A stretch of 64,000 nt of DNA from Candidatus Poribacteria bacterium (GCA_965205025.1 CBDBFU010000032.1:96001-160000), one strand, 5' to 3'; positions 21,714-58,850 are shown, numbered from the stretch's first letter. The notes: generated from the letters alone by a model not told the origin. Translations and numbers: made by a program.

Positions 21714-21813
21714 TACAGAATTCTCCTTTTATTGCGAATTATATGATGAATTTAAACTAACGGTTGTACTGTTACACAGAAGTGGATGCAGGATATACAT
21801 TCTGTTAATTTGG

Positions 21814-23718
21814 TTATTCTTCCAATTTAGGAGCAAGTTCCCAGAGGAGTACAGTACCATCAAGACTTCCGCTGGCAATGGTTTTTCCATCTGGACTGAA
21901 CGTAATACTATAAATACTTTCTGTATGTCCAGTAAAAGCTAAAAGGTGTGTGTTTGATTTTACATCCCACAGATGTATGGTCTTATCCCATCCACCACTG
22001 GCAAGGATCTTTCCATCCGGACTAAATGAAACACTGCTGACATTATTTGTATGTAAAGGTAAAGTCAGTAAAGATTTACCTGTCTCTACATCCCACAAAC
22101 GCACGGTATCATCCCATCCACCACTGGCAAGGATCTTTCCATCCGGACTGAATGAGACGCTACTAACTCTGTGTGTATGTTCATCAAGTGTATGAATTGT
22201 GTTTCCTGACTGCACATCCCACAGGCGTATGGTATTATCCCAACTTCCACTGGCGAGGATTTGTCCATCAGGACTAAAAGCAAGACCCATAACATTTTCC
22301 TCATGTCCCTTAAGTGTATTGAGATGCTCACCAGTATTCGGATGCCATAGATGTATTATTTTCTCATCACTTCCACCTGCAAGTATGCTACCATTGAAAT
22401 TAAATGCAATACTGTTGATACCACCCGCATGTCCTGTGAATGTCTGAAGTTCTGTACCTGTCGCTACATCCCAAAGACGCATTATTTCATCGTTATAGCT
22501 GCCAGTTGCGAGTGTTTTACCATCCGGACTGAATACTACGCTGGATACTGTCCATGAATGTCCTGGTAACTCTTTAAGAAGTGTTCCTGTTTGCCTATTC
22601 CACAAACATACTCTATCGTCTCTACTCCCCCCAGTAGCGATTATCTTACCATCAGAGTTGAACGCTACACTTCTGACCCCACCCGTAAATCCGGTAAATT
22701 CCCGACCATGTATACCTGTTTTAACATCCCATAGACATATAGTTTCAGCACCACTTGCGGCTGCGAGTGTTGTTCCATCTGGACTATAATCAATGGATTT
22801 GAAATTATCAATAAGTCCATTTAGCATATGTCCTTTTAGGGTTCGTTGTATATCACCTGTATTAACATCCCAGAAACGAATGGTGTTATCCCAAACACCT
22901 GCACTGGCGATTGTTTTTCCATCCGGACTGAAAACTGCACTAATAACACCTCCCGCTGTATGTCCTTTAAGCACATGTAGGGATGTGCCTGTCTCTGTCT
23001 CCCACAACCGTACGGTTCTGTCCCAACTCGTACTGGCGATTGTTTTTCCATCCGGACTGAAGGTAACTACTAAGAGATGTTTTTCATGTCCTATAAGTGT
23101 TTGAAGAAGTGTACCGGTCTGCACATCCCATACACGAACAGTATTATCCCAACTTCCAGTTGCGAGTATCTTACCATCCGGACTGAAGTCAACAGTCCAA
23201 ATTCTTTCTGTATGTTTTTGGAGTGTACGTAAAGAACGTCCTGTACGCACATCCCATATACGTGCGGTTCTGTCATCACTCCCACTTGCTAATAGTTCTC
23301 CATTTGGACTAAATGCAACACTCCAGACAGGTCTAGTGTGACCTATCATTGTTCTAAGTAGTGTTCCGGTTCTCCCATCCCATAAACGGATAGTATTATC
23401 CATACTTGCACTTGCCAATGTTAATCCATCCGGACTGAATGCAACGCTTCTGACAGTAGATGTATGCCCAACGAGTAGATCAAGTTCTTCACCTGTCTGT
23501 ACATCGTATATCCAAATACCGATTGAACCTGCTACTGCTAAAAGTTTTCCATTTGGCGAGTATGCTATTTGACTTATCAAACCTTTACCCAGACGTAATT
23601 TCGCACCATCGGGTAAACCCCATTTTACGTGCCCTTCTGCAAATGTGTGTGGTATTAAGAACTGTATCGAAATATAAATCATATAAATTGTTGTAACTGA
23701 GAACAGTATTTTGTACAA
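21814..23718 (-). CDS. Secreted WD40-repeat protein (array member 3)
   Basis: HVKWGLPDGAKLRLGKG cap, WD40 repeats. TTG start at 23718 with an AAGGAG RBS. Confidence 0.9.
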   Translation of the reverse strand: MYKILFSVTTIYMIYISIQFLIPHTFAEGHVKWGLPDGAKLRLGKGLISQIAYSPNGKLLAVAGSIGIWIYDVQTGEELDLLVGHTSTVRSVAFSPDGLTLASASMDNTIRLWDGRTGTLLRTMIGHTRPVWSVAFSPNGELLASGSDDRTARIWDVRTGRSLRTLQKHTERIWTVDFSPDGKILATGSWDNTVRVWDVQTGTLLQTLIGHEKHLLVVTFSPDGKTIASTSWDRTVRLWETETGTSLHVLKGHTAGGVISAVFSPDGKTIASAGVWDNTIRFWDVNTGDIQRTLKGHMLNGLIDNFKSIDYSPDGTTLAAASGAETICLWDVKTGIHGREFTGFTGGVRSVAFNSDGKIIATGGSRDDRVCLWNRQTGTLLKELPGHSWTVSSVVFSPDGKTLATGSYNDEIMRLWDVATGTELQTFTGHAGGINSIAFNFNGSILAGGSDEKIIHLWHPNTGEHLNTLKGHEENVMGLAFSPDGQILASGSWDNTIRLWDVQSGNTIHTLDEHTHRVSSVSFSPDGKILASGGWDDTVRLWDVETGKSLLTLPLHTNNVSSVSFSPDGKILASGGWDKTIHLWDVKSNTHLLAFTGHTESIYSITFSPDGKTIASGSLDGTVLLWELAPKLEE

Positions 23719-23863
23719 TATGTGTCTCCTTTGATTAGGGTTTTGTAATGTTCCTAACAATCATTCTATAGTTACTGGAATATGGATGCACATTTTTACA
23801 GTATGTTGAAAAGGCAATTATCGGTATGGATTGGGGTTATGAGTTAAGAATACTTGAAGATTG

Positions 23864-25732
23864 CTATTCCTGCCATTCTGATGCAAGTTCCCAGAGTAGG
23901 ATGGTACCGTCCGTACTCCCACTTGCAAGTGACTTACCATCCGGACTAAACATTAGACTAATTACAACATGAGTATGTCCATTCAACGTTGTAATATGGG
24001 TTTTTGTAGGTATATCCCATAGTCGTATTGTTTTGTCCCAACTTCCACTTGCCAGAATTCTCCCATTCGTACTGAAGGTAACGCAATAGACCCATAACCA
24101 ATGCCCGTCAAAAGTGTGTAAATGTTTACCAGTCTGTACATCCCATAGACGCACGCTTTCGTCCCTACTTCCGCTTGCTAATAAGTTCCCATCGGGACTA
24201 AATGCAACACTAAATATCCAGTTAGTATGTCCAACCAGTGACCGTATATGTTTGCCTGTTTGTACATCCCATAGATGTATGTTTTTATCAAAACCACCAC
24301 TCGCTAAAATCTTTCCATCAGGACTAAACGCTAATGCAGCTTTTATAGTTGCTTGTTTATTGAATGTTTTCAAAGATTCGCCTGTTTGTACATCCCATAA
24401 ACGTATATTCTTATCTAAATCTGCACCTGCCAACAACTGTCCATCCGGACTCAAAGTTACAGGAGAATAGTATTCTGTATGACCAGGAAATGTCCTCAGA
24501 ATCGTGCCTGTTTTCACATCCCATAGTTGAGTTGATTTGTCCAAACCTCCACTTGCCAATAACAAGCCATCCGGACTGAATGAAATGGAAAATACTCTGT
24601 GAGAATGTCCTGTTAGTGCTTTAATAGATTTTGTTTTATTAACATCCCATAGATAAATAGTATTATCTAATCCACCTCCACTCGCTAAAATCTTTCCATC
24701 AGGACTATACATAATACCTCTTACAGAAGCATGATGACCACTAATGGTTTGGACATTTTCTCCTGTTTCCGGATTCCAAAAGCGTATAGTTCCATCATTA
24801 CTACTACTTATCAGTGTATTACGTTCTGGATTAAATAGGATTGAGGAAATCGGTGCAGTATGCTTTACCAAAGTCCGTATTGATTTACCTGTCTGTAAAT
24901 CCCATTGATGTATGTCTGAATCAGCACTCCCTGTGAAGAGTGTCTTACCATCTGGACTGAAAACCAAATTATACACATCGTTTGTATGTCCTTTCAGTGT
25001 TATGATATGTGTACCAGTATGCACATCCCACAAACAGATAGTATCGTCATTACTCCCACTTGCGAGTGTCTTACCATCTGGACTAAAGGCTACTGTCAAG
25101 ACATGTTCTTTATGGTGTGTCAACGTATGAAGAGTTTTACCAGTTTTTGCGTTCCACAATCGAACGGTTTTGTCTCTGCTTCCACTTGCTATTATAGTAT
25201 CATCTGGACTCAAGGTTGTCTTTGTAATCTTATCCGTATGTCCAGTCATCTCTAAAATTGAATTACCTGTATCTATATCCCACAGATGGATTTTAGATTC
25301 ATCACTACTCACGATAGTTTTTTCATCGGAACTGAATTTTAGACTCAAGATCGCATTTTTATGTCTTCCAATTGATCGAAGATGGATGCCTGTCCGTGCA
25401 TCCCAAAAATTGATAATAGGGTTCCAGCCAGATGTTGCCAGAATTGAACCGTCAGGATTAAATGCAACACTATGGTGTTTAGAGGTATTACCAGTGAATA
25501 GTGCCAGTTCTTCAACTGTGTTTGCATTGTAGATCCAAATACCAATATCAGTAGCTACAGCCAAGAATTTTCCATCTGGTGTATAGGCTAAATCAACAAT
25601 TTTTCCTTTTCCCAACCGTGCTGTTGCGCCTTTTGGTAGGTTCCATTTTGTATAGTCTTCGGCAGTGGAATATGGAGTTAATGTCAGGAATATAAGGTAA
25701 AAAGTTGTTATTATGAGTAGTACTTTTTTCAA
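23864..25732 (-). CDS. Secreted WD40-repeat protein (array member 4)
   Basis: Signal peptide, DYTKWNLPKGATARLGKG cap, WD40 repeats. TTG start with a GAGGA RBS. Confidence 0.9.
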   Translation of the reverse strand: MKKVLLIITTFYLIFLTLTPYSTAEDYTKWNLPKGATARLGKGKIVDLAYTPDGKFLAVATDIGIWIYNANTVEELALFTGNTSKHHSVAFNPDGSILATSGWNPIINFWDARTGIHLRSIGRHKNAILSLKFSSDEKTIVSSDESKIHLWDIDTGNSILEMTGHTDKITKTTLSPDDTIIASGSRDKTVRLWNAKTGKTLHTLTHHKEHVLTVAFSPDGKTLASGSNDDTICLWDVHTGTHIITLKGHTNDVYNLVFSPDGKTLFTGSADSDIHQWDLQTGKSIRTLVKHTAPISSILFNPERNTLISSSNDGTIRFWNPETGENVQTISGHHASVRGIMYSPDGKILASGGGLDNTIYLWDVNKTKSIKALTGHSHRVFSISFSPDGLLLASGGLDKSTQLWDVKTGTILRTFPGHTEYYSPVTLSPDGQLLAGADLDKNIRLWDVQTGESLKTFNKQATIKAALAFSPDGKILASGGFDKNIHLWDVQTGKHIRSLVGHTNWIFSVAFSPDGNLLASGSRDESVRLWDVQTGKHLHTFDGHWLWVYCVTFSTNGRILASGSWDKTIRLWDIPTKTHITTLNGHTHVVISLMFSPDGKSLASGSTDGTILLWELASEWQE

Positions 25733-25765
25733 TTATTTATCCTCTAATTTGATTGTTGAAGTGTT

Positions 25766-25879
25766 TATACCAATCTAAAAATGTTTATCCCAGAAAAGTT
25801 GTTAAGTAGGTCTTGAAATACCGCACAAACTGGAAGTTTATGCTACATTAAAGAGGCTTTAATTATCAGAAATGGTATT
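25766..25879. mobile_element. MITE-like element with TATACCA...TGGTATTA ends and a REP hairpin core
   Basis: Short terminal IRs; core GCACAAACTGGAAGTTTATGCTAC matches the reverse-complement REP at 51326-51350; the right half recurs at about 48973-49039. Confidence 0.6.
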
Positions 25880-26039
25880 AGAATTAAAGATATTACAGTT
25901 AGACGAAAGTTGATACATTAATGTGATTAATGGTGAATGCTTATTCCTATAACGGGAAGCGGAGTTCCTCTACCAAGAGGCTTGAATGGTTTGGTTAAGG
26001 TATGAAAGGGTGTATATCTAAGTGAAATTGTAGAATTGG

Positions 26040-27923
26040 CTAATCAGTTGAGTCAGATGCTAATTCCCATAACAATACAGTTCCATCGAAACTACCGGAC
26101 GCAAGAGTTTTACTATCCGGACTGAATACCAGACTATCTATACTACTTGTATGTCCATTCAGAGTAGTAATATGTAGTCCTGTCTTTGCATCCCACAAAC
26201 GGATAGTACTGTCCCAACACCCACTTGCAAGTATTCTACCATCAGGACTAAAGGCGATAGTATGCACATCATCTGCATGTCCAGATAAGGTTTGTATAGC
26301 ATCACCTGTTTCTATATCCCATAAAATGATTGTGTCATCCCAACTACTGCTGGTAAGTTTACTACCATCTGGCGTGAAGGTTATACTACTCACCCTATTC
26401 ATGTGATTAGTTAGTGTATGTATTGTCTCACCTGTATTCACATCCCATAGACGTATTGTGTTATCCCAACTTCCACTTGCTAATATATCTCCATCTGGAC
26501 TGAAGGCAAGACTCACGATATGTTTTGTATGACCTTCAAGTGATGTAAGTTGATGTCCTGTATGTGGATTCCAAAGAATTATGGATGGTTCGTCACTGCC
26601 AGCAGCCAGTATGATACCATCTGGACTAAGTGCTATACTGCTGACTCCATCAGTATGTCCTGAGAACGTTCGAATTAAATTACCTGTCTGGATATCCCAT
26701 AACCGTATTGTTTCATCAGAATAACTACAACTAACGAGTGTCTTACCATCTGGACTAAATACTACTCCTGAAACCCTACCTGTGTGTCCTGAGAGTTCAT
26801 TAAGTAGGTTTCCTGTTTGCACATCCCACAAACTGACTGTCACACTCCCACTACCACCAGTTGCGATGATGTTCCCGTCTATACTGAATGCAACAGCTCG
26901 GACTCTATTGGTATATCCTGTGAGTTCCTGAATCTGTTCTAATGTCTTTACATCTAATACCTGAAGTGTATCACCTCGTCCGCCAGTTACATAGGTTTTT
27001 CCATCTGAACCAAAATCTATACTAATTAGGTTATCTGTATTATCACTAAATGCTGGTTGGGTTTCACCTGTCATGGCATCTTTTAAAGTAAATGAATTAT
27101 CCCATAACCCTACACTTATAATCTTCTTAATATCTGGATTGTATTGGACACTTACAATCTCTTCTGGTCTATACCACCCTGTTAGTGTTTGTAGGGATGC
27201 TCCTGTGTCTACATCCCACATACGGACTGTTCTATCAGAACTATTAGTAATTAGAAATTTATCGTCTTGACTGAATGCAACACCCCTTATTCGTTTCTCA
27301 TGTCCTTTGAGCGTGTGAAGTATGTTTCTTGTCGTTATATCCCATAGATATATTACATATTCTCGATTTGTTATAGCGAGTGTTGTACCATCTGTACTGA
27401 ATACTACTGTTCCAAATCGATCCGTATATCCTTCGATAGTATCCTGTAACGTCCCAGTCTGTACATCCCATAACCGTACAGTTGTATCGTGGCTACCACT
27501 TACCACCATTTTCCCATCAGGACTGAAAGCCACACTATTGACACTCATTGTGTGTCCTGTCATCGATCTGAGTTCTGTACCTGTTCGTACATCCCACAAA
27601 AGAACAATGTTATCTGTACCACCACTTGCTAAAGTTAATCCGTCTGGACTGAATGCCACACAGAATACATAAGCGTTTTGCTCCTTAAGTAAGTAAAGTT
27701 CTTTACCTGTCAGAGCATCGTGAATCCAAACCCCAGTAGAACTTGCTACAGCAATTAGTTTTCCATCTGGAGAGGATATGACCCGCGATGCAATGCCTTT
27801 ACCGAGTCGTACTTTGGCACCATCGGGTAATCCCCATTTTGGGTAGTCTTGGGCAGAAACTTTTGAGGTTATAATTTGAATTGAAAATAGAAAGGTGAGA
27901 ATCAATAACGGTATTCGTGACAT
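26040..27923 (-). CDS. Secreted WD40-repeat protein (array member 5)
   Basis: Signal peptide, DYPKWGLPDGAKVRLGKG cap, WD40 repeats. Confidence 0.9.
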   Translation of the reverse strand: MSRIPLLILTFLFSIQIITSKVSAQDYPKWGLPDGAKVRLGKGIASRVISSPDGKLIAVASSTGVWIHDALTGKELYLLKEQNAYVFCVAFSPDGLTLASGGTDNIVLLWDVRTGTELRSMTGHTMSVNSVAFSPDGKMVVSGSHDTTVRLWDVQTGTLQDTIEGYTDRFGTVVFSTDGTTLAITNREYVIYLWDITTRNILHTLKGHEKRIRGVAFSQDDKFLITNSSDRTVRMWDVDTGASLQTLTGWYRPEEIVSVQYNPDIKKIISVGLWDNSFTLKDAMTGETQPAFSDNTDNLISIDFGSDGKTYVTGGRGDTLQVLDVKTLEQIQELTGYTNRVRAVAFSIDGNIIATGGSGSVTVSLWDVQTGNLLNELSGHTGRVSGVVFSPDGKTLVSCSYSDETIRLWDIQTGNLIRTFSGHTDGVSSIALSPDGIILAAGSDEPSIILWNPHTGHQLTSLEGHTKHIVSLAFSPDGDILASGSWDNTIRLWDVNTGETIHTLTNHMNRVSSITFTPDGSKLTSSSWDDTIILWDIETGDAIQTLSGHADDVHTIAFSPDGRILASGCWDSTIRLWDAKTGLHITTLNGHTSSIDSLVFSPDSKTLASGSFDGTVLLWELASDSTD

Positions 27924-33392: not shown

Positions 33393-33467
33393 AATATCTG
33401 CCGGGTCTATAAGAGCAAAATCATTGGAAAAATGAAGTACATATTTCTATTTTCAAACTCACGTTAT

Positions 33468-41310: not shown

Positions 41311-41421
41311 TCACATTCGTTAATTTAATTATAACTTAAGTACTTATATGTTTTTCATACGAAATGTATTGGGACATAGCACTCCGCTGGAGTGCCAGAT
41401 TGTTCCGATATTGTTTTCTAT

Positions 41422-41573
41422 AACGTGAGTTTGATAAATCATATTTTTAAATTCGAATCAACGGTATGAATGCTATTTAGCATTCCCCGTGGTTAGGAAA
41501 CCGCACCTACCGGGCGTATAGGAGTAATATTTTAGGAAAATGAAACTTATTTGCCTATTATCAAACTCACGTT
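41422..41573. mobile_element. 152-bp MITE with 16-bp TIR AACGTGAGTTTGATAA and 6-bp target duplication TTCTAT
   Basis: TIRs at 41422-37 and 41558-73; TTCTAT at 41416-21 and 41574-79; contains the 34-bp element and a REP. Related ends occur at about 305-318, 33450-33465, 45803-45837 and 51391-51405. Confidence 0.85.
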
Positions 41574-42347
41574 TTCTATGGACATAGTACTCCGCTGGAG
41601 TACGGTATTTTTGATATAGAAAACTCCAAAAAATAGACTTATCATTAGATACTCAGTTTCCCTGAATTAGAATTTTCCAATTTAGGCTTTGTATATAATT
41701 GGCATATTTGGTCTTGAGAATACTCTTCAATAACTGATATTTCAGATTGTTAAAAAGGTCTAAAAACAGAGATTTAATCCTAATATACAGACAAAAAATA
41801 AGGTGTAAAAATAGACATTTAATCCTAAATCTCAGAGAGTAGATAGTGTTGTTGTTGCATGAGTCTATTCCTCGAAAAAATGAAAAAAGTTACACTTTTT
41901 GTCACACGGTGTGACATTGAAATTGGTGTAAATTACCCCTATAACCCCTGTCATAGACTGACTTTACTCCACTTTGAATTGACTTTATAAGAATTTCTAA
42001 AATGTGTGGTTTTGTGTTCTTTTTATCCTTCCTGATTTTGAGATTCCCAACGGTTAAAAAGGTATGCTTTTTTGACGTATATGAAACTTTGTATTTAGGA
42101 TCGTATTTATAAATTGTCATTTGTTTTTAGTTTGTGTTGTAACTTCTAATTTTATTTTCATTTTGACAGATATTCTTAATATGTGCTTCTATTTTTGTGA
42201 TATATGTATGTTAGTTGTTAGAGATGGATGTTTTCTTCATTAATTAGATCGGGGATCGGAATCCTCTCCTACACATAATACTATTTCTATAAATTATTGT
42301 CTCATTAGGTGGTTATTATGGCAGTCATTTTTCAGGTCACAAACTGA

Positions 42348-43829: not shown

Positions 43830-44136
43830 TAGTCATTCCCCGGGGTTTAGGATATTGTTGATAACGACTTCTGTAGACATTTCGTCCCTACGGGATTCAA
43901 GATAAGTGTTGGATAGTTTTCCTATAAACATTCCGTCCCTACAGGACTCCATTTAGTGTCTGATTACTTGTTATTACAATGGTAGTTGGTTTGAATAAAT
44001 ATCCTATCAAGAAAACTGTGTAAGTCTTGACTATATTTATGAAATCTTTCATTTCTTTAACAATTACAACTTTCAAGGAACAAAAGCGTCTAATCAGGTG
44101 TATAAAATAAAATACATTATTCTGGAGGAGAATCGT

Positions 44137-44619
44137 ATGTCAGAAACTGTTGAAAAGCGAACGTTACAGCGTCATTTCAATCCTGTGAAGGCGAAATTGG
44201 CTTATATGGAAGAATGTTTTGATCAATTGCGAAACGGTCTTCCATCAAGTAAAGATGATTATATAGTCTCTGATCGTCTAACCCATTCTTATGTAAAAAG
44301 TTGCTTCCTGATGATTGTACAGAGAGCAGTTGACATAAACAATGCTATTATAGAATTTAGTGGTAATACACCTCCATACCAAAAGCAACAAAGTTTTCGT
44401 TCGATTCAGGAAAGCGGTGCAATTGATCTTGATACATTAAATTTCTTTGAACACGCCTTAGACTGTTACCAAAAAATCGCTAATCCTTATGAAGGATTAC
44501 CTGCCTCTGATCTTTATGATATATCTTCTTTACTTTTGCACCATGGTGAAGCGTATGCTCGGCAGATAAATGACTTTTTTGATGATACGAGTACAAAAAC
44601 AGTTGCTGAAGATAGTTAG
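44137..44619 (+). CDS. DUF86/HepT-like HEPN protein with degenerate catalytic motif
   Basis: GGAGGAG RBS. K...MEE...L, VQRAVDINN.II...G..P.....F..I.E.G.I aligns by eye to DUF86; the R-x4-H position reads YQKIAN. Confidence 0.6.
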   Translation: MSETVEKRTLQRHFNPVKAKLAYMEECFDQLRNGLPSSKDDYIVSDRLTHSYVKSCFLMIVQRAVDINNAIIEFSGNTPPYQKQQSFRSIQESGAIDLDTLNFFEHALDCYQKIANPYEGLPASDLYDISSLLLHHGEAYARQINDFFDDTSTKTVAEDS

Positions 44620-45730: not shown

Positions 45731-45890
45731 TTAAACACTTTAGCATAAAGTGATTAAAATTGTCAATAAGCAAATTAAATAAGAGGGTTTATAATTCCTG
45801 CAATAACTTGCGTTTGATAATAGGTATATGAACTTCATTTACAAGCATATTGCATTCATTACCCCAGTAGGTGCGGTTACCTAACCGCAC

Positions 45891-46799
45891 TATTAGCGTC
45901 AATTTTAGAAAAAGGATGTCTGATTTTTCAATAATAATTATTGTTAAGTGAAAACACCTCCTATATAATGTATAAAAATATTACCTTTTCACTTTATACA
46001 AGAGGTGTTTCCAATGAATACATTATCACAGGTTCCTGAAAGAATGCAACAGATTCTAACGACCATTGCCGATGAAGCAACCCTTGAAACAGGGTTTTGC
46101 AAAAGAAATCGAAAACTCACAGGGAGTCAATTTGCTCAGATACTTACTTTTAGTTGGTTAGAAAATCCTGATGCTACCTATACTCAACTTACACATACTG
46201 CTGCTTCGCTCGGTACTCCTATCTCACGGCAAGCCATTGAACAACGATTTACAGCTGAAGCTGCACAAACCCTCAAAGCAACCCTTGATGCGGCTGCGTC
46301 CGAAATGATTTCCGCGGATCCACAAGTTCTTCCACTCCTTGAACAGTTCAACGGTATCTATATACAAGACAGTTCTTGGATAATACTCCCTGATACGCTT
46401 CACGATATTTGGGAAGGCGCCGGTAAAGATGAAAGTAAGATTAGTAGCTCAGAGACTCTCCGAAGAAGACACCGAAAAACGACGACGAGATATCAACTAT
46501 CGTGCCAAACGAAAGCATACACAAGCATCACAGGCACGGCTCCAACGGCATTGGGTGATGTTGGTCGTAGGATGGCGATGTTTACGACATAGTCTATCGA
46601 AAACAGTAGATCTTATTACATCCTACACACGCACAATCACAACAAACTTTCGCAAGTCTAAGAAGCATCTTAGGCAGACATTTGATGAAATAAAACAAGT
46701 ATTCGAAACAGGATGCTATATTGAGAGACGAGCTAATAGAAAAACAACATTGGAATATCTTGAAAATGCTATAAAAAAAACACTAAATTGACGCCTATG
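45891..46799 (+). mobile_element. IS4-family (IS231-like) element, non-autonomous double-deletion derivative (909 bp)
   Basis: Ends match the copy at 46989-48443; two internal deletions totalling 546 bp remove the LADLGY and RWQIE regions. Confidence 0.9.
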
Positions 46800-46988: not shown

Positions 46989-48443
46989 TATAGGCGTCAA
47001 TTTTAGAAAAAGGATGTCTGATTTTTCAATAATAATTATTGTTAAGTGAAAACACCTCCTATATAATGTATAAAAATATTACCTTTTACTTTATACAAGA
47101 GGTGTTTCCAATGAATACATTATCACAGGTTCCTGAAAAAATGCAACAGATTCTAACAACCATTGCTGATGAAGCAGCCCTTGAAACAGGATTTTGCAAA
47201 AGAAATCGAAAACTTGCGGGGAGTCATTTTGCTCAGACACTTATTTATAGTTGGTTAGAAAATCCTGATGCCACCTATACTCAACTTACACATACTGCTG
47301 CTTCTCTCGGTACTCCAATCTCACGACAAGCGATTGAACAACGATTTACTGCTGAAGCTGCACAAACCCTCAAAGCAATCCTTGACGCGGCTGCGTCCGA
47401 AGTGATTTCTGCGGATCCACAAGTTCTCCCACTCCTTGAACAGTTCAACGGTATCTATATACAAGATAGTTCTTGGATAACACTCCCTGATACGCTTCAC
47501 GATATTTGGGAAGGTGCCAGTAAAAAGGATTATCCGAACAAATCCGAACTGAAACTCCATCTACGCTTCGATGTTGCTACAGGGACATTCGAACACTTTC
47601 AACTCACCAACGGCATCACCGCTGATAGCACTGTAGAAAAACAGATTGACCGGCTCCCCCAAGGGAGTTTACGCCTTGCGGATCTCGGTTATTTTTCGCT
47701 ACAAACCCTTCAAGAACTTACGGACGAAGGGGTCTTTTGGATTTCACGGTATAAAGTTAGGTGTTCGGTTTTTGACAATACAGGAAAGCCTCTTTGTTTA
47801 CATAAATGGCTCAAGTTTCAGACCGAAAACATTATCGAAACAGATATTTTCATAGGTTCAAAAAAGCGGATGAAAGTAAGATTAGTAGCTCAGAGACTCT
47901 CCGAAGAAGAAACCGAAAAACGACGACGAGATATCAACTATCGTGCTAAACGAAAGCATACACAAGCATCACAGGCACGACTCCAACTCGCAGGTTGGAA
48001 TATCTACATTACAAATATTGGAACGGATCAACTCACCGCTGAACAGATATGTGTCATTGCGCGGATTCGATGGCAGATCGAGTTGATATTTAAGTGCTTT
48101 AAAAGCCTTGGAAAAGTAGACACATCACGAAGTAAAAAACCGTATCGTATTCTATGTGAAATATATGCTAAACTGATCGCTGCAATCATTCGGCATTGGG
48201 TGATGTTGGTCATAGGATGGCGATGTTTACGGCATAGTTTATCGAAAACAGTAGAGCTTATTACGTCCTACACACGCACAATCACAATAAGCTTTCGCAA
48301 GTCAAAGAGACATCTTAGAGAGACATTTGATGAGATAAAACAAGTATTCGAAAACGGGTGCTACATTGAAAGAAGAGCTAATAGAAAAACAACATTGGAA
48401 TATCTTGAAAATGCTACAAAAAACCGCTAAATTGACGCCTATG
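46989..48443 (+). mobile_element. IS4-family (IS231-like) insertion sequence, 1455 bp
   Basis: TIRs TATAGGCGTCAATTTTAG and CTAAATTGACGCCTATG; flanked by the 20-bp direct repeat GTGCGGTTAGGAAACCGCAC. Confidence 0.92.
47111..48430 (+). CDS. IS4-family DDE transposase
   Basis: GFCKRNRKL N-terminus; IQDSS (D1), LADLGYF (D2), RWQIELIFK (E); GAGGTG RBS. Confidence 0.93.
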   Translation: MNTLSQVPEKMQQILTTIADEAALETGFCKRNRKLAGSHFAQTLIYSWLENPDATYTQLTHTAASLGTPISRQAIEQRFTAEAAQTLKAILDAAASEVISADPQVLPLLEQFNGIYIQDSSWITLPDTLHDIWEGASKKDYPNKSELKLHLRFDVATGTFEHFQLTNGITADSTVEKQIDRLPQGSLRLADLGYFSLQTLQELTDEGVFWISRYKVRCSVFDNTGKPLCLHKWLKFQTENIIETDIFIGSKKRMKVRLVAQRLSEEETEKRRRDINYRAKRKHTQASQARLQLAGWNIYITNIGTDQLTAEQICVIARIRWQIELIFKCFKSLGKVDTSRSKKPYRILCEIYAKLIAAIIRHWVMLVIGWRCLRHSLSKTVELITSYTRTITISFRKSKRHLRETFDEIKQVFENGCYIERRANRKTTLEYLENATKNR

Positions 48444-49253: not shown

Positions 49254-50084
49254 ATGAAACTTAGTTGCCTTCCCGTATCCCTATACGATGACATTTTCTC
49301 AGGAAAAAGTACGGTTGCAGATTGGATTCATCTTGCATCTCAATTAGGTTTGGATGGTGTTGATTTTAGTATCAAATTCTTTCCAGATCGTAGTGAAAAA
49401 ACAATTAATAGAGTAAGGACTATACTCACAGAAAGAAAAATAGATGCCTGTATGATAGCATGCTATTCTGACTTTACAGATCCTGATAAAACAATGCGAA
49501 AACAGGAATTACTGGATATAAAAACAGATATTAGATTAGCAAAAGATTTAGGGGCTAAATTTGTAAGAGTGACTGCAGGGCAAAAACATCCCGGGATTAA
49601 ACGTGAGGATGGAATTCGTTGGGTAACGGAGGGTTTTCGACATGCTCTTGATGAAGCAGAAAAACATGGGATCACACTCGCTTATGAGAATCACACCAAG
49701 GGGGCACCATGGGAGTATTGGGATTTCTCACAACCGTCAGAAATTTTCATAGAAATCCTAAACGAACTATCGGATACACACCTTGGTGTCTGTTTTGATA
49801 CCGCTAACCCTCTTGTCCTTAACGAAGATGTTCTTGACCTTTTTGAGAAGGTATTAGATAGAATAGTAGTACTTCATATATTTGACATGAAGGAAATAGG
49901 TACATTTGAACCGGTTAGGGTTGGGACAGGTGCATCCCCAATTCAACAAATCCTCTCACGGTTACGACAAACTAATTATGATGGTTGGCTCAGTATTGAG
50001 GAAGCCAGTCGTCAAGGACGAAAAGGGTTTGAAGAGTCAGTTAATTATGTTCGTAAAGCGTGGAATGATGCATCATCCACGTGA
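49254..50084 (+). CDS. Sugar phosphate isomerase/epimerase (xylose-isomerase-like TIM barrel)
   Basis: LG.DGVD, A..LGA..VRV..G, LAYENH, FDTAN, H..D and GWLSIEE motifs. Confidence 0.88.
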   Translation: MKLSCLPVSLYDDIFSGKSTVADWIHLASQLGLDGVDFSIKFFPDRSEKTINRVRTILTERKIDACMIACYSDFTDPDKTMRKQELLDIKTDIRLAKDLGAKFVRVTAGQKHPGIKREDGIRWVTEGFRHALDEAEKHGITLAYENHTKGAPWEYWDFSQPSEIFIEILNELSDTHLGVCFDTANPLVLNEDVLDLFEKVLDRIVVLHIFDMKEIGTFEPVRVGTGASPIQQILSRLRQTNYDGWLSIEEASRQGRKGFEESVNYVRKAWNDASST

Positions 50085-50924
50085 GGGTTCACTCATACTT
50101 TCTCGTGCTTGTTGTGAAAGTGCTGCAAGATGACCATCGTTTGCTCTAACCTGTTCCAGATGTATTTCCCGTTCTGGTGTTGCCGTATTTACCATTATTT
50201 CACTATATTTACGATCTATCCAGAAACGTGCTGAGCCTGCTATATAGGCTTGTAATGCTTCCAATTTTTCCTCTGGATACCTTTGGCAAAGATTCATAGT
50301 AAACATACGTCTTCGTTTGCCACCACCGAATGCTGCGTGTTTTGTATTGTGGTTAAACAGCACGAGATCTCCTGGTGTGGTTTCAAACACTACGGCAGGT
50401 ACATCTTTTCCGTGTATTTCCCACATTTCCTGACTCTTCCCTACTTGTTGACTCAGACCATCGGCATAGTTATCACCGAATAGATGACTTCCAGGAATTA
50501 CACGTAATGCACCAGAATCACGGGTCAGAGGATCCAAATAGAATGCAATTTTTAAATGCATTGGATCTTCTAATTTATGTCCTCCATCAGAATGCCATCC
50601 GGTATCACCTACATAGAAATTACCATCACTTCCCATATAGTTAAAATCATCTCCGAGAAGTGTTTTGGCAATTGCCAGGATACGCGGATCATCAAGTAAA
50701 GAACACAACACAGCACTTTGATCTATAAAGGGAACAATACAGGACCGTGCTGTACCTTCGTGGGGTCTTCCGTTATGACCGCCACCACGTTCTTCCCAAA
50801 CCGTTTCAAACGCATCCTGAATTTCTTTGATTCTATCTACCATTAATTGTGGAAAACTGAGGTAACCGAATGTTTTAAAAAAGTTTATTTCCGATTCAGT
50901 GACTGTATAATCATGTTGATTCAT
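50073..50924 (-). CDS. Phytanoyl-CoA dioxygenase (PhyH) family Fe(II)/2OG enzyme
   Basis: FF..FGYL, WHSD, FYLD.L....GALRVIPGSH and PGDLVLF....H......RR motifs. Confidence 0.88.
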   Translation of the reverse strand: MNQHDYTVTESEINFFKTFGYLSFPQLMVDRIKEIQDAFETVWEERGGGHNGRPHEGTARSCIVPFIDQSAVLCSLLDDPRILAIAKTLLGDDFNYMGSDGNFYVGDTGWHSDGGHKLEDPMHLKIAFYLDPLTRDSGALRVIPGSHLFGDNYADGLSQQVGKSQEMWEIHGKDVPAVVFETTPGDLVLFNHNTKHAAFGGGKRRRMFTMNLCQRYPEEKLEALQAYIAGSARFWIDRKYSEIMVNTATPEREIHLEQVRANDGHLAALSQQARESMSEPSRG

Positions 50925-51020
50925 TTCTCAAATCCTCCAGATGTCTGAATGATGGTATCATACATAAGCGTAATGAATATAGCAATAGAGATGAATACCA
51001 TAACTTCAGATCATACGAAA

Positions 51021-51143
51021 ACTCTGGATAAGAAACGGAATACAGATGCTCTACCACTGAGCTACAACAGGTTTTACATTACATTCCACCCGTTGGCAGG
51101 AGTCGAACCTGCGACCCGATAACGCATTCACACGACCCAGAGT
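51021..51143 (-). ncRNA. YrlA-type bacterial Y RNA (circularly permuted tRNA mimic)
   Basis: T-arm GCAGG-UUCGACU-CCUGC precedes D-arm GCUC-AGUGGUA-GAGC; acceptor-like stem CAACGGG/CCUGUUG is closed by a 17-nt loop; ends pair ACUCUGG/CCAGAGU; no anticodon loop. Confidence 0.8.
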
Positions 51144-51216
51144 TAGAATATAGATTTTATGTAGAATTGACCTGAAGAAGTATGTATCCAAGGGATTATC
51201 CATATTCAGTGTGGTA

Positions 51217-51246
51217 ATTATAATGGATATGCAATTATTTTGTCAA
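51217..51246 (-). promoter_or_regulatory. Consensus sigma70 promoter upstream of the Y RNA
   Basis: TTGACA(51246-41)-18-TATAAT(51222-17). Confidence 0.75.
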
Positions 51247-51284
51247 ATATAGTATAGATTAACATCAGTTTGATAATCAAAAAT

Positions 51285-51405
51285 GTCAGTTCGATAAACA
51301 AAATTTTGTCTTGAAGATAGTCTTTGTAGCACAAACTTTCCAGTTTGTGCATCCTGGTGTTAACTAAAAGTTCGGGTTACAATGTGTCTAATCAAACTCA
51401 CGTTA
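51285..51405. repeat. Degenerate AACGTGAG-type MITE with REP core GTAGCACAAACTTTCCAGTTTGTGC
   Basis: Right end ATCAAACTCACGTTA; left end CAGTTCGATAA-like; REP hairpin at 51326-51350. Confidence 0.55.
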
Positions 51406-51649
51406 GATTAAGTATGTTATTGTAAATTGGAATCCTTTCCTTCCAAAGCTTACATACATGCACATGAATGTAAATTCTAATCCTTCCTTAGCAACTATTG
51501 TTAATGTCAATCTCCCGTTAAGTCTATTGAAATATGATAACCATAAGGGTATAATTCTATAGTGTGAAACTGTTAAATTTACATATTTTTTATCTCGAAT
51601 TTTAATCTTCAAATTAGTGTATTGCTATATTTCCGTATGATGGTATTTG

Positions 51650-52729
51650 ATGAAGAAGTTTATTCTCCTAATTCTTTCCATTCTCATATTAGGTATTATT
51701 TCCTACTTCTTTTATTCCCGTTTAGTATTTAATCCTACTCCCATTCTCGTTAATATACCACCCTCAATACCCCATGAGCATGTTACTCCAGAAGGGGAAT
51801 CCGTTAAACATATTCATACCTATGACCTATCTTTTGAACAGCCAAAATTATATAGGGAAATCCCTGCAACAGATATACTAAAGAAACACCCTATCCAGCT
51901 TGAATGGGAACGGATTGACCTTCAAATGATCCGTGAGAAGTATCAACCCTATACTGTATCAGAAATGAAGAATAAATGGTATCAAGTATATAGGAATGAA
52001 TTTGGATCAAATTATCCAACGAAATTAGACAAAGCATACCCTCAAGAAAAATGGCTTAAACAAAATTTGGAATTAGGACAACCATTAGCAGAATACATGG
52101 ATTATAGAGTAGTAATGCAACGGAGAATATATATGATAAATAGACGTGATTTATGGAGGGTTGTTAGTCCAGAGAAAAAGGAAGCTATGCGAAATAGTCT
52201 ACAATTACCACTATATATTGATACCTGGAGAGAGTACGAAGATGCCTATCTTAAGTTCTGGATTGTTGCTTCGTACGAATCCTTGGTATCAGACAAAATG
52301 GAAACTGTTTCTGCTTATGTAGTGAATAAGGAGTTTTTCTCAAAATTCACTGGTGGACGGCTTAGTCGGAAAGAGAAATATGACTTGATGGTGTATGGGG
52401 TGATTCCTGATGGGAAAAACATCGTATATTATAAATCAGATGGTGAGATTCTACCACCACGTGTAAAACCTCGTTATTACGAACGCTATATGGTAGAATT
52501 AAATCAAGCACAAAAAAACGTAGATAAGATGATTAGGGATCATCAAAGTTTTTTTCAATCCAGCAAAAAGGAAAGAAGAAAAACAAAACTTAAAAATCCA
52601 GTAGCCTTCTCATTGTTAAAGGAACTTCATTGGGGTGAATATCCAGATGATCTTCAGACTTTAGAGAAAGCGATTACTAAACTTGAAGAAATACGGACTG
52701 ATGGGGAAGCAAAGATACATAAAAGGTGA
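51650..52729 (+). CDS. Hypothetical membrane-anchored protein
   Basis: 359-aa ORF with an N-terminal TM helix and a His-rich HEH...HIH segment; no family recognised. Confidence 0.7.
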   Translation: MKKFILLILSILILGIISYFFYSRLVFNPTPILVNIPPSIPHEHVTPEGESVKHIHTYDLSFEQPKLYREIPATDILKKHPIQLEWERIDLQMIREKYQPYTVSEMKNKWYQVYRNEFGSNYPTKLDKAYPQEKWLKQNLELGQPLAEYMDYRVVMQRRIYMINRRDLWRVVSPEKKEAMRNSLQLPLYIDTWREYEDAYLKFWIVASYESLVSDKMETVSAYVVNKEFFSKFTGGRLSRKEKYDLMVYGVIPDGKNIVYYKSDGEILPPRVKPRYYERYMVELNQAQKNVDKMIRDHQSFFQSSKKERRKTKLKNPVAFSLLKELHWGEYPDDLQTLEKAITKLEEIRTDGEAKIHKR

Positions 52730-54837: not shown

Positions 54838-56754
54838 ATGATGAATCTTACACGAACTACAATCGCGTTATTAATGACTATTTATTTTATAACATATAAT
54901 GTTAATGCAGATGATTTCTCAACATGGGAACTCCCTGAAGGTGCGGTTATGCGTCTTGGTAAGAGTCGGATAAGTGGAAATTTTGCTTTCTCACCGGATA
55001 GCACACGACTTGCAGTAGCCAGTGAAATTGGGATCTGGATTTATGATGTCCGATTGGATAATAAACCGAAAGAACTTATGCTCCTCACGGGTCATCAAAA
55101 TGGTGTTAAGAGGGTTGTTTTCTCACCTGATGGGAAAACCATTGCAAGTGGGGGTTCGGATCATACTGTTCGTTTATGGAATGCTGGAAATGGAGAGCAG
55201 GGGTATAGAATGGAAGGACACCCGTGGATAATCTCAGCATTAGCGTTCTCTCCTGATGGAAAAACACTTGCTTCAGCAAACGAACATTATGAGGATGGTA
55301 CGAGAATAATTGAATCGGAGATTAGATTGTGGGATGTAGAAAATGGACAACATATCACGACACTGAAAGGACATACAGATACGATCACATCATTATCATT
55401 TTCAATGGATGGTAAGACATTGGGAAGTGGTGGGAATGATAATGCTGTCTTATTGTGGAATATTGAGACTGAACAAATGACACCCTTATATGCTGAACAT
55501 GATAATAGCGTAAATTTTGTTGGATATACATCAGATGGCAACTCATTAATTACGGGGAGTTCGGATAACACTGTTAAAGTATGGGATGCTAAACGTGGAT
55601 ATAACAAATTAACAATAAAACTGAATCCATTGTTTGATTTATCAATAGTTGCAGTATCTCCTGATACCAAGACTATCGCTACTGGTGATTATGAGGCAAT
55701 TAAATTATGGAATTCAGAAACAGGTGAATTCAAAACAACAATCAAATCAAATGATTATAATATCTATAACTTATCATTCTCTCCTGATGGTAAAATTCTG
55801 GCATCTAAGGGATTTGGTGAAAATGTGATGTTATGGGATTTAGAAAAACTTAATCATAAGTCAACAATTGAGGGACATGGTGGTTCAGTCCTTTCTATAG
55901 CATATTCACCTGTTGGAAATACGATTGCTTCTGTGGGTAAGGGTAGAGCAGGTCTTTTATGGGATACACAGACTGGACAAAACAAAGCTGCCCTTAAAGG
56001 GTACTTTGCCTCTGTACTTACGTCAGTAGCCTACTCACCAGATGGGAATACCATTGCTACTGGAGGTAAGATGAAAAGAGTATTATTCTGGGAAGGACGG
56101 AAACGGATTTTACAGACATATTCAAGAAAACCGAAATCAGAAAGAATTGAAACCAGAGAAAATATAAATTCTATAGCATATTCCCCTGATGGTGATACAC
56201 TTGCTATAGGACTTACAGACAACACGGTCCGGTTATGCAACGCAAAGTTAAAAAAGGAAAGAAGAAAATTGGCAGGACATACAGATAATGTTACATCAGT
56301 CGATTTCTCCCCTGATGGTAGTATCCTTGCAAGTGGGAGTCAAGATACCACAATTAGTTTGTGGAACCTACACACAAAAGAACATGTGGCTAGACTTGAT
56401 GGACATAAAGCACGAATCACATCAGTTGCTTTTTCTCCTGATGGTACCACACTCGCGAGTGCAAGTGCTGATAATCATGTTTTCCTATGGAATGTTGAAT
56501 CCGAAGATATAAAATTGAAAATTGGAGAAAATAATTGGCAATTTCTGAGTGTTTCATTCTCCCCAGATGGTTCAAAAATTGTTACAGGGGATCGAAGAGG
56601 TCTTGTTCAGTTGTGGGATACAACAACTGGTAATCTAATACACACTTACAAAGGACATTCACAGGATGCAAATACAGTGAAATTCTCTCCTGATGGAAAG
56701 ACAATTGCCAGTGGTGGTAATGAAGGGACAGTCCTTGTTTGGAATCTGCCATAA
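54838..56754 (+). CDS. Secreted WD40-repeat protein
   Basis: Signal peptide, DFSTWELPEGAVMRLGK cap, WD40 repeats. Confidence 0.9.
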   Translation: MMNLTRTTIALLMTIYFITYNVNADDFSTWELPEGAVMRLGKSRISGNFAFSPDSTRLAVASEIGIWIYDVRLDNKPKELMLLTGHQNGVKRVVFSPDGKTIASGGSDHTVRLWNAGNGEQGYRMEGHPWIISALAFSPDGKTLASANEHYEDGTRIIESEIRLWDVENGQHITTLKGHTDTITSLSFSMDGKTLGSGGNDNAVLLWNIETEQMTPLYAEHDNSVNFVGYTSDGNSLITGSSDNTVKVWDAKRGYNKLTIKLNPLFDLSIVAVSPDTKTIATGDYEAIKLWNSETGEFKTTIKSNDYNIYNLSFSPDGKILASKGFGENVMLWDLEKLNHKSTIEGHGGSVLSIAYSPVGNTIASVGKGRAGLLWDTQTGQNKAALKGYFASVLTSVAYSPDGNTIATGGKMKRVLFWEGRKRILQTYSRKPKSERIETRENINSIAYSPDGDTLAIGLTDNTVRLCNAKLKKERRKLAGHTDNVTSVDFSPDGSILASGSQDTTISLWNLHTKEHVARLDGHKARITSVAFSPDGTTLASASADNHVFLWNVESEDIKLKIGENNWQFLSVSFSPDGSKIVTGDRRGLVQLWDTTTGNLIHTYKGHSQDANTVKFSPDGKTIASGGNEGTVLVWNLP

Positions 56755-56936
56755 TTATTAGTACATCAGGTTTGAAATATAATGTCCTTTGTAGGTTTAA
56801 GCATCCTATTTTATTACTAAATACATTTAGGAATTGACTTTTCCTTCTGACTTGTTCATTGTTATATTCCCTGTTTAACCCGAAATTCATTATACGCTAA
56901 CTAACTTACCTTGAAAGTACTAAATTAGAAAGTATT

Positions 56937-58850
56937 ATGAAGTTATTTAAAATCCTATTAATTTCCTCTTTCTTAGGTTGGTTTTTTCAAATAACTGCCA
57001 CAGGAGCAGATTACACCACATTGAGTTTGCCTGAAGGAGCAATAAAACGACTTGGGAAAGGTGTAATTACCGGAAATGTGGCTTTTTCTCCTAATGGTTT
57101 TCATCTTGCTGTTGGTAGTTCAATCGGTATATGGATTTATGAAATACGTGAGGATATGGTAAAAGAAATAGATCTTCTCACTGGACATACTGATAGTGTA
57201 TATACGTTAGCATATTCTCAGAATGGGAGGATGCTTGCGTCAGGAAGTTGGGATCATACGATACGATTGTGGGATGGACAAACAGGCATACTCATAGATA
57301 CACTTGAAGGACATACAGACAAAGTCAATTGTGTTGTATTTTCAGGAGATGGAAAAATACTTGCAAGTGGAAGTAAAGATAAAACAGTTAAACTTTGGGA
57401 CATAGAGACAGGGGACGTTAGTTATACAAATATAGACCATACTGACAGTGTTACTTCAGTGGCATTTTCTCCAGATGGTAATATCCTTGCAAGTGGAAGT
57501 AAAGATAAAACCATACGAATGATAAATGTACAAACAAAAGACCATATTACAACAATAAAAGAACATACCCATGAGGTTACAACTATTGCATTTTCTCCTG
57601 ATGGCAATATACTTGCAAGTGGTGGTAAAGACAAGACAATCCGTCTGTGGGATATTCAAAAAAATGAATCTATGATTCTACTTAGTGAAGATATAGGTAT
57701 AGTGAATACTTTGATATATTCTCCTGAAGGAAATCGATTGGCAAGTATGGATATGCAAAATGTCATACATTTATGGAACGGAAAAACAGGACAACACCAG
57801 TCTTCATTTAGAGTAAAGACTGCAATAGGTAAATATAAGTCAACAATAGTAGGTCATTCGGCTCCTATCCGGTCTTCAGTGGCAATTACGCCAGATGGAA
57901 ACATAATCGCAAGTGTAACTTGGGACAATATTATACGATTATGGGATACGCATACAAAGGAACTAATTCACCAAATCACTGGACATACGGATATAGTTAA
58001 CTCAATTGCATATTCTAATGAAAATATGATTGCTGCGGGTTATGAAGATGGCACAATGGTGTTGTGGGATATTGATTCTGAAACCAGCAAAACATACTTA
58101 GGTCATACAAGTTCTGTGCAATCTGTGGACATATCATCTGATGGAAACATGATTGCAACAGGAAGTAATGACTTAACCTTACGGCTGTGGGACACCAAAA
58201 CAGAAATGGAAATCACCACATTTAAAGAACATACTATAAATGTGTATACTGTTGCATTTTCTCCAGATGGCAGCAAAATTGTATCAGGCAGCTACGACAA
58301 AACAGTTCGACTATGGGATATAGATGCAAAACAGCATCTTGCGACTTTTGTTGGACATACACAACCAGTTGTGTCAGTTGCATTTTCACCAGACGGTTCC
58401 ACAGTTGCAAGTGCAAGTTTTGACGAGACAATATGTTTATTGGATTCAGACACACTTACAGATAAAGCAACACTTACAGATAAAGCAACACTTAGAGGAC
58501 ATCGTGGAATACTGACCTCTGTTAAGATTTCACCAGATAACTCAACAATCGCTTCGGGTGGTACAGATTCAAGAGTATGGCTATGGGATACACAAACCTA
58601 TGAACATAAGACTACTCTCATTGGACATACATCAACCGTTACAACACTTGACTATTCTCCTGATGGTAATCTGATAGTTACGGGTAGTTGGGATAAGACA
58701 ATTCGTTTCTGGCATGCTTCTTTTGGAAAACATATAACTACATTTACAGGACATACCATAGGTGTTACCTCAGTAGTGTTTTCTTCAAATGGCAATACTA
58801 TTGCGAGTGGTAGTTATGATGGCACAATACTAATTTGGAAGATTCAATAA
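56937..58850 (+). CDS. Secreted WD40-repeat protein
   Basis: Signal peptide, DYTTLSLPEGAIKRLGKG cap, WD40 repeats. Confidence 0.9.
   Translation: MKLFKILLISSFLGWFFQITATGADYTTLSLPEGAIKRLGKGVITGNVAFSPNGFHLAVGSSIGIWIYEIREDMVKEIDLLTGHTDSVYTLAYSQNGRMLASGSWDHTIRLWDGQTGILIDTLEGHTDKVNCVVFSGDGKILASGSKDKTVKLWDIETGDVSYTNIDHTDSVTSVAFSPDGNILASGSKDKTIRMINVQTKDHITTIKEHTHEVTTIAFSPDGNILASGGKDKTIRLWDIQKNESMILLSEDIGIVNTLIYSPEGNRLASMDMQNVIHLWNGKTGQHQSSFRVKTAIGKYKSTIVGHSAPIRSSVAITPDGNIIASVTWDNIIRLWDTHTKELIHQITGHTDIVNSIAYSNENMIAAGYEDGTMVLWDIDSETSKTYLGHTSSVQSVDISSDGNMIATGSNDLTLRLWDTKTEMEITTFKEHTINVYTVAFSPDGSKIVSGSYDKTVRLWDIDAKQHLATFVGHTQPVVSVAFSPDGSTVASASFDETICLLDSDTLTDKATLTDKATLRGHRGILTSVKISPDNSTIASGGTDSRVWLWDTQTYEHKTTLIGHTSTVTTLDYSPDGNLIVTGSWDKTIRFWHASFGKHITTFTGHTIGVTSVVFSSNGNTIASGSYDGTILIWKIQ

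Follow-up and report, generated by a model that had tools for sequence, protein, structure and literature searches.

Can a bacterial Y RNA stand apart from Ro60, the protein next to whose gene such RNAs have so far been found and by which position they have been defined? The question is raised by a 64,000-nucleotide (nt) stretch of DNA from Candidatus Poribacteria bacterium (GCA_965205025.1 CBDBFU010000032.1:96001-160000; at its full length, the window), whose minus strand carries an element with the parts of a transfer RNA (tRNA) in permuted order. The original prediction, made from the sequence alone, described this element as an orphan tRNA mimic of the YrlA type of Y RNA, with a perfect promoter, no adjacent Ro60 and a gene for a PhyH dioxygenase downstream. 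A natural test case would be a well-formed YrlA-like RNA with no link to Ro60, a consensus promoter to itself and a much longer stem, and the purpose of the tRNA-like head is an open question in the accessible parts of both Chen et al. 2014 (PMC4201824) and Wang et al. 2018 (bioRxiv 10.1101/312249).

The element is selected, structured and of YrlA architecture. Our favored reading, to which we give an even chance, is that it is a genuine, independently promoted YrlA-class tRNA mimic whose partner Ro60 is encoded elsewhere and which acts in trans; its expression, its processing, its protein partner and its action in trans are what we infer.

A permuted tRNA-like core of YrlA architecture

In the accessible parts of the two sources, YrlA RNAs are defined by T, acceptor-like and D stem-loops, a YUAY sequence, a set of tertiary positions and a long stem in which the two ends of the RNA pair (Chen et al. 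2014, PMC4201824; Wang et al. 2018, bioRxiv 10.1101/312249). All of the modules looked for are legible on the minus strand at 51144..51020, where a T-arm is followed by a closed acceptor-like hairpin and then a D-arm, with the ends of the RNA paired. The 10-base-pair (bp) closing helix (51144-51135 with 51029-51020) is seen both in the sequence and in the minimum free energy (MFE) fold. A motif search 5′ of the T-arm placed UGAAUG, one transition away from CGAAUG, at 51125..51130, and UUAU at 51119..51122 agrees with the YUAY found before the variable region of YrlA RNAs (Chen et al. 2014, PMC4201824, accessible part). The equivalent of the variable loop (51113..51117) is 5 nt long and ends in a C that can form a Levitt pair with G15 of the D-loop; the MFE fold pairs this stretch differently. 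The T-arm (51096..51112), a 5-bp stem with a 7-nt UUCGACU loop, is found in the sequence, by Rfam and in the folds. Next comes the closed equivalent of the acceptor stem (51065..51095), whose 7 bp are sealed by 17 unpaired nt (the MFE fold has 8 bp and a loop of 15 nt); its strands are complementary at 7 of 7 positions, including one U-G wobble, and are joined by the loop. A UA linker (51064-51063) leads to the D-arm (51062-51048), again found in the sequence, by Rfam and in the folds, which has a 4-bp stem and a 7-nt loop containing GG. In the folds and in the covariance-model alignment described below, 51020..51047 supplies the 3′ side of the inner stem and, at 51029-51020, that of the closing helix; four U are read after the closing helix, at 51021-51018.

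The 5′-to-3′ order of the T, acceptor-like and D stem-loops is that of YrlA as given in the accessible part of Chen et al. 2014 (PMC4201824). The tertiary positions of Wang et al. 2018 (bioRxiv 10.1101/312249, section 7, from the part accessible) can also be read from the sequence: the UA linker, the final pyrimidine of the variable loop, a possible G15:C48 pair and the GG of the D-loop opposite the T-loop. The long end-stem is represented by the 10-bp closing helix together with an outer stem of ~33 bp. The permuted tRNA architecture first proposed is thus borne out, with every listed feature present in the minus-strand sequence and the fold returning the arms as described.

The pattern of T-loop, hairpin and D-arm is found at a single place in the window, and 100 shuffles yielded no match; the unconstrained MFE fold of 136 nt reproduces the described arms exactly (-40.8 kcal/mol, z = -2.58, with 3 of 200 shuffles as good). 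The element is not a conventional tRNA, the positions of the anticodon arm being occupied by the long terminal stem, nor was it recognized by ARAGORN or Rfam as a transfer-messenger RNA (tmRNA) in one or two pieces. ARAGORN, which models permuted tmRNA, called 0 tRNA and 0 tmRNA genes in the whole window, and Rfam gave no tRNA or tmRNA match with an E value up to 1 on either strand. At curated thresholds, Rfam returned no matches in the window at all. YrlA (RF02553) was its sole match with an E value below 0.8 on both strands of the whole window (E = 0.0049, and 6.8e-5 on a 901-nt region).

For controls, genome contigs were scanned with the permuted-core pattern, which yielded at least 119 loci and at least 124 pattern matches. 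Among the matches listed, 89 overlap two tRNAs called by ARAGORN and so are tandem tRNA genes, and 20 matches, in 19 places, overlap none. Of 20 candidate control loci, the 12 with 2-kb flanks served as the set for a Ro60-neighbor test. Ro60 adjoins the RNA in 10 of these 12: nine were detected by Pfam (TROVE and/or vWA_Ro60), and a divergent tenth, in locus L030, by a Ro60 profile built from the nine (E = 4.6e-11). The pattern does, then, select Y RNAs. RtcB was found beside the RNA in L017. The sole other control RNA without Ro60 or RtcB within 2 kb on either side is at 1979-2076 of L069, a Nocardia miyunensis record, which makes it another candidate YrlA-like RNA with no link to Ro60.

A covariance model, R1, was built from 10 YrlA-like RNAs at five control loci, four of them shown to have Ro60 and the fifth (L116) with only 300-nt flanks, in which there was no Ro60. 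R1 aligns with the window RNA from end to end (51143..51018) at 58.1 bits, using all 133 positions and with 23 of 23 model pairs standard; the 5′ strand of the closing helix (51135..51144) falls on YrlA helix 1 with 0 nonstandard pairs. The second-best place in the window scores 14.1 bits. Over 98 sources, the window RNA comes 15th of 146 matches, near the Ro60-adjacent RNAs of L028 (57.8 bits), L014 (53.4) and L040 (51.2). In a family alignment (A2) of 15 matches, from the window and nine Ro60 loci, 93.6% of cells are paired, compared to 70.6% in shuffles, none of 500 of which reach the observed value, with the reservation that A2 was fitted to the model and is biased toward structure. In A2, compensating changes preserve the closing helix and the acceptor hairpin, 6 of the 7 pairs in each changing on both sides, and the window RNA builds both helices from distinct sequences of its own.

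Several control loci have a character of their own. YrlA-like RNAs and Ro60 lie within dense tRNA gene arrays at L005, L041 and L078, the last also with an HNH endonuclease, and a tRNA array at L022 (3356-3789) has a subthreshold match to GOLLD RNA (61.8 bits); these four resemble phage-type or mobile tRNA islands. A blastn search against phages gave 15 records, in which matches were confined to the core or single arms and none covered 80% of the query. In the best of these, 143 nt separate the match from a preceding gene whose annotation reads "RNA-binding protein, von Willebrand factor-like." The same search against plasmids gave 0 matches.

Promoter, outer stem and the PhyH gene

Upstream of the RNA on the same strand are a -35 hexamer, TTGACA (51241..51246), and a -10 hexamer, TATAAT (51217..51222), which with their 18-nt spacer score 12/12 in a promoter scan. 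The end of the -10 box is 72 nt from the closing helix, in agreement with the perfect promoter about 75 nt upstream that had been claimed. The usual distance from a -10 box to the transcription start is 7 nt, which would place the start at ~51210. Seven sites of sigma-70 type scoring at least 11/12 occur in the window, and six of them are upstream of and facing an open reading frame (ORF) or this RNA. Because near-consensus sites of this type also precede other genes of the window, the promoter fits the organism. A Bacteroidia-type promoter was considered and rejected: TAnnTTTG, the Bacteroidia -7 element, is upstream of only 3 of the 38 ORFs in the window, and a Shine-Dalgarno-like motif is found at 12 of the 38.

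Fourteen nt upstream of the -35 hexamer (51260..51274, minus strand) is a copy, with two mismatches, of a recurrent intergenic 15-mer, ATCAAACTCACGTTA, which makes it a candidate operator. Matches to the 15-mer with up to 3 mismatches number 9, where 2.71 are expected; a count of 9 was reached in 1 of 100 shuffles. Seven copies were aligned (305-319, 33452-33466, 41421-41435, 41560-41574, 45804-45818, 51260-51274 and 51391-51405), and three share ~40 nt of flanking similarity. The 15-mer may bind a regulator, or it may simply be a small repeat. Also upstream of the promoter, at 51329-51350, is a perfect 9-bp hairpin with a 4-nt loop and no U-run on either strand. The idea that the RNA is carried by a mobile element was rejected, as the 722-nt intergenic region recurs in the window only as motifs of 12 to 19 nt and one 26-nt match at 92%.

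The flanks of the core RNA form a duplex: in the MFE fold of 51212..50915, and in the centroid fold as well, ~33 further bp join 51208-51148 with 51016-50974 in an interrupted outer stem. Its 5′ strand (51148..51208, minus strand) is made up of helices at 51208-51200, 51198-51195, 51190-51184, 51177-51168 and 51150-51148, and its 3′ strand (50974..51016) of their counterparts at 51016-51014, 51013-51004, 50998-50992, 50986-50983 and 50982-50974. The duplex formed by the flanks has an energy of -31.2 kcal/mol, compared to -14.3 +/- 3.2 in dinucleotide shuffles, of which 0 of 1000 reach -31.2; when the pairing is evaluated in the context of a hairpin, 4 of 1000 shuffles are as stable. The outermost helix starts at 51208, 2 nt past the point where transcription is expected to begin. 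This agreement links promoter and RNA and suggests a primary structure of ~235 nt, a rod with internal loops and the head at its tip. The product of ~123 nt envisaged in the original prediction would then probably be the inner part of this larger structure. Nor does the lower limit first given for the element hold, since the structure reaches ~50974.

When the same flank-duplex test was applied to 13 control RNAs, it was significant in L040 (0 of 300 shuffles), L028 (1 of 300) and L062 (6 of 300) and not in the other 10. Since both L040 and L028 are Ro60 adjacent, long stems are a variant that arises naturally among Ro60-linked YrlA RNAs. In these two (L040:1903-2135 and L028:1903-2168), the Rfam match limits exclude the real outer stems; a GNCGAAG motif of L040 lies in the extended stem, outside those limits.

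Other features overlap or border the outer stem. Its 3′ strand contains one arm of a 12-nt perfect inverted repeat (50976-50987 and 51620-51631); the other arm is just before a divergent 360-amino-acid (aa) gene and ~400 nt upstream of the RNA promoter, and the repeat may be due to chance. Beside it is an 18-nt direct repeat at 83% (50941-50958 and 51629-51646). A 50-codon ORF (51051-51203, minus strand) has its ATG 7 nt past the predicted transcription start and spans the T-arm and acceptor hairpin; it is without a Shine-Dalgarno motif and is probably spurious.

Downstream and in the same orientation is the gene for the PhyH-family dioxygenase (50073..50924, minus strand; Pfam PF05721, E = 3.3e-13), with GGAGG before its ATG. 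Its start codon at 50924 comes 95 nt after the closing helix, the spacing originally noted, and 49 nt after the outer stem. No terminator-like site was found in 50000-52000, so read-through from the RNA into PhyH is likely. The promoter of the RNA is the sole strong one upstream of PhyH; the next candidate scores 9/12 and lies inside the outer stem. Part of the GGAGG falls within a small hairpin of the MFE fold. Homologues of the PhyH protein are abundant (2957 matches); the best 120 of these span 98 to 67% identity and include, at ~70% identity, proteins of metagenome-assembled genomes named for very different phyla.

Ro60 and the rival explanations

That leaves the matter of the protein partner. 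Among the 38 ORFs of the window, Pfam identified 0 TROVE, 0 vWA_Ro60 and 0 RtcB domains, and a search of 965 six-frame ORFs of the window with the Ro60 profile, all filters off, gave a best E value of 3.2. In the accessible part of Chen et al. 2014 (PMC4201824), nearly all of the best YrlA matches are no more than 4 kb from Ro60 and on the same strand, and the YrlA-Ro60 distances in Table S1 (part 2 of 5, some 20 Bacteroidetes entries) run from 20 to ~2,600 nt. The nearest possible Ro60 would thus be far beyond the distances in that part of the table. The description of the RNA as an orphan holds at the scale of the window.

Several observations weigh against our favored reading. No Ro60 occurs in the 51 kb of the window to one side of the RNA or in the 12.8 kb to the other. 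The Rfam YrlA score is 32 bits, well short of the gathering cut-off of 69, and the match is limited to model positions 27-81 of 114, the tRNA-like core. The resemblance rests on one sequence, with neither this genome nor a close relative among the at least 119 loci of the pattern scan. R1 also gives as much as 51.6 bits (L001) to tandem tRNA genes that the same pattern had preselected, which implies that the T- and D-arms contribute most of the 58.1 bits; for that reason we rejected R1 as a discriminator. The fold of the whole transcript, taken alone, is not significant (z = -1.47), and two alternative 6-bp helices can form between the closing helix and the tRNA-like core, which leaves the pairing there ambiguous. 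Finally, GNCGAAN0-1G, a motif near the YrlA 5′ end and the proposed Ro60 contact (Chen et al. 2014, PMC4201824, accessible part), has no strict match anywhere 5′ of the T-arm, nor is there a CGAA; the nearest sequence is UGAAUG.

Two of these points lose force when the controls are considered. The 20 candidate control loci contain 26 Rfam YrlA matches of 31.7 to 77.6 bits, and only 3 of the 26 reach 69 bits; L028 and L041, both Ro60 adjacent, have core-only matches of 34.5 and 39.7 bits, and L040, also Ro60 adjacent, scores 40.5. With so few controls passing, and Ro60-adjacent L028 at only 34.5 bits, a subthreshold score is compatible with YrlA membership. In diverse genomes most family members fall below the Rfam cut-off, and match limits can clip real stems, as in L040. 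The assignment to YrlA is carried by the architecture, the sole Rfam family matched and the R1 alignment; the Rfam cut-off and the strict motif speak against it. As a Y RNA in the strict sense of an RNA bound by Ro60/Rsr, the element is a candidate. As for that motif, it is present in 4 and absent from 10 of the 14 RNAs of Ro60-carrying control loci, of which 8 have CGAAUG, so that its absence here says little.

If our favored reading is correct, we imagine that transcription from the consensus sigma-70-type promoter would start at ~51210 and that the first nucleotides would pair with a segment ~235 nt downstream, forming a rod of ~43 bp (33 in the outer stem and 10 in the closing helix). The tRNA-like head, consisting of the variable loop, T-arm, closed acceptor hairpin and D-arm, would sit at the tip of the rod. 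If the analogy with characterized YrlA RNAs holds, proteins would bind the stem, and tRNA enzymes would recognize the head. Cleavage by ribonuclease P (RNase P) into two paired halves is plausible by analogy to Mycobacterium smegmatis YrlA, in which it occurs, given an acceptor hairpin of 7 to 8 bp in both. The most likely partner would be Ro60/Rsr, supplied from elsewhere in the genome and acting with the RNA in trans. As no terminator comes before PhyH, the PhyH transcript probably begins with this RNA, which might be excised from it much as Salmonella YrlA is from its operon transcript.

It is possible, though we think somewhat improbable, that the RNA is a tRNA mimic independent of Ro60, in a lineage that lacks the protein or after binding was lost, and works as a decoy, scaffold or sensor whose partners would be tRNA-modifying or -processing enzymes, a nuclease or some other protein that binds the stem. 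Consistent with this, neither Ro60 nor RtcB occurs in 64 kb, compared to Ro60 within 2 kb in 10 of 12 controls; the strict 5′ motif is missing, its CGAAUG counterpart having become UGAAUG and being displaced relative to the closing helix; the RNA has its own consensus promoter outside an rsr/rtc operon; and its stem is longer than in most controls. In addition, the YrlA search described in the accessible part of Chen et al. 2014 (PMC4201824) was confined to TROVE-annotated genomes and accepted hits near Ro60, so YrlA-like RNAs of Ro60-free genomes are unsurveyed there. However, the control loci that carry Ro60 mostly lack the strict motif as well, long stems coexist with adjacent Ro60 in L040 and L028, and Ro60 may simply lie outside the window. 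Our search of the literature by titles and the beginnings of abstracts, with subscription journals mostly outside it, turned up no YrlA-like RNA away from Ro60 or in a Ro60-free genome. Tentatively, we also propose a fuller version of a YrlA-type mimic outside the Ro60 system, to which we give clearly less than an even chance: a 235-nt rod-and-head RNA, made from its own strong and possibly regulated promoter, that would have another partner or whose cleavage by RNase P at the acceptor hairpin would be coupled to release and expression of the PhyH messenger RNA (mRNA).

A role purely in cis, as a leader in the 5′ untranslated region that stabilizes, processes or controls the PhyH message and uses the head as a handle for, e.g., RNase P, strikes us as unlikely. 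The shared orientation, the outer stem ending 49 nt before the ATG, the lack of a terminator-like site in 50000-52000, the promoter that is the only strong one upstream of PhyH and the hairpin that takes in part of the GGAGG would all be accounted for. On the other hand, the characterized YrlA RNAs all act as separate RNAs, their cotranscription with mRNAs notwithstanding (Chen et al. 2014, PMC4201824, accessible part), and four U follow the closing helix. Moreover, PhyH proteins of ~70% identity in very different phyla suggest that the enzyme is an ordinary one, not generally linked to an RNA of this kind. We find it harder still to believe that the RNA is a decaying relic, once an rsr-linked YrlA and now nonfunctional, stranded by a rearrangement such as one involving the nearby IS4. 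The IS4 transposase gene and fragment 2.6-5 kb away, the degraded 5′ motif and the low Rfam score could be explained in that way; a relic would not be expected to retain, all together, 23 standard pairs of the 23 in the model, all of the conserved tertiary positions, a 12/12 promoter and an extra outer stem of 33 bp far beyond chance. Least credible, and in our view hardly worth retaining, is that there is no RNA gene here but a tRNA-gene remnant, the 3′ half followed by the 5′ half, left at an old integration site or by collapse of a tandem pair. Most genome matches of the same pattern are indeed tandem tRNAs (89 of 124 among the matches listed). The window, though, has no tRNA by ARAGORN and no integrase among its 38 ORFs, which also tells against the attachment-site remnant that the original prediction had named among what would refute it. 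The element shows no CCA or discriminator-plus-spacer layout, its loop-joined acceptor strands are complementary at 7 of 7 positions (one U-G wobble), and the flanks that stand in place of anticodon arms pair over ~43 bp.

The two outcomes for Ro60 would have different consequences. If it is encoded elsewhere in this genome, then Y RNA genes can be dispersed, and searches of the rsr neighborhood miss them. If it is absent, the tRNA-mimic module would have a function independent of Ro60.

Neighboring genes and known systems

The gene upstream of the RNA (51647-52729) is the divergent one noted above; its 360-aa product has an N-terminal membrane helix, no Pfam or NCBIfam family and no usable Atlas match. 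We rejected it as a protein partner because it belongs to no known family, has a membrane helix and shows nothing pointing to RNA binding. On the other side are the IS4 transposase gene (47039-48430) and fragment (46005-46592), and farther on a weak match to the HepT family of type VII toxin-antitoxin RNases (44098-44619); together, the HepT match and the two IS4 pieces make up a small patch of mobile or accessory DNA, 2.6-7 kb from the RNA. Elsewhere in the window are genes for two type IX secretion proteins, PorU (431.9 bits, cut-off 420) and a member of the PorV family; despite these, the rarity of TAnnTTTG and the Shine-Dalgarno-like motifs make the organism unlike a typical Bacteroidia. 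An H+-pyrophosphatase is split between overlapping ORFs (8892-10379 and 10300-11259, covering profile positions 1-394 and 394-645), reflecting a frameshift, a pseudogene or a sequencing error. Seven tandem or clustered WD40-repeat paralogues of ~614-650 aa and one 1137-aa LRR-WD40 protein (17850-27923 and 54838-58850, also 361-3774) make up an unusual load of eukaryote-like repeat proteins.

How, then, does the RNA compare with systems already described? Two-piece (circularly permuted) tmRNAs share with it a T-arm and 3′ acceptor strand that precede the 5′ acceptor strand, the two being joined by a loop. In those tmRNAs, the joining loop is removed. The window RNA differs from them in having a full D-arm and no evident tag reading frame or pseudoknot region.

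Deinococcus radiodurans Yrn1 and the metazoan Y RNAs resemble it in their long end-stem, which in those RNAs bears the Ro60 site (Wang et al. 2018, bioRxiv 10.1101/312249, accessible part). In Yrn1, the orientation of the T and D elements is different (Chen et al. 2014, PMC4201824, accessible part); metazoan Y RNAs are without the tRNA-like head, and their GGUCCGA-type motif is not present as such in the window RNA. M. smegmatis YrlA has the same 7-bp equivalent of the acceptor stem, but it lies just upstream of rsr, is cotranscribed with YrlB and binds Rsr (Chen et al. 2014, PMC4201824, accessible part).

Among the controls, the RNAs of L040 (Spirillospora) and L028 (Enterovirga) are like the window RNA in their low Rfam scores and in flank duplexes beyond those of shuffles; unlike it, they have Ro60 next door, and L040 retains GNCGAAG. 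From YrlA itself (RF02553; Salmonella Typhimurium YrlA), the window RNA departs in its score below the Rfam cut-off and in having no Ro60 within the 64-kb window, UGAAUG rather than CGAAUG, a short 5-nt variable loop without a V arm, an extra outer stem of ~33 bp and its own consensus sigma-70-type promoter in place of an rsr/rtc operon. What it shares with YrlA is the order of the modules and the conserved tRNA-type positions.

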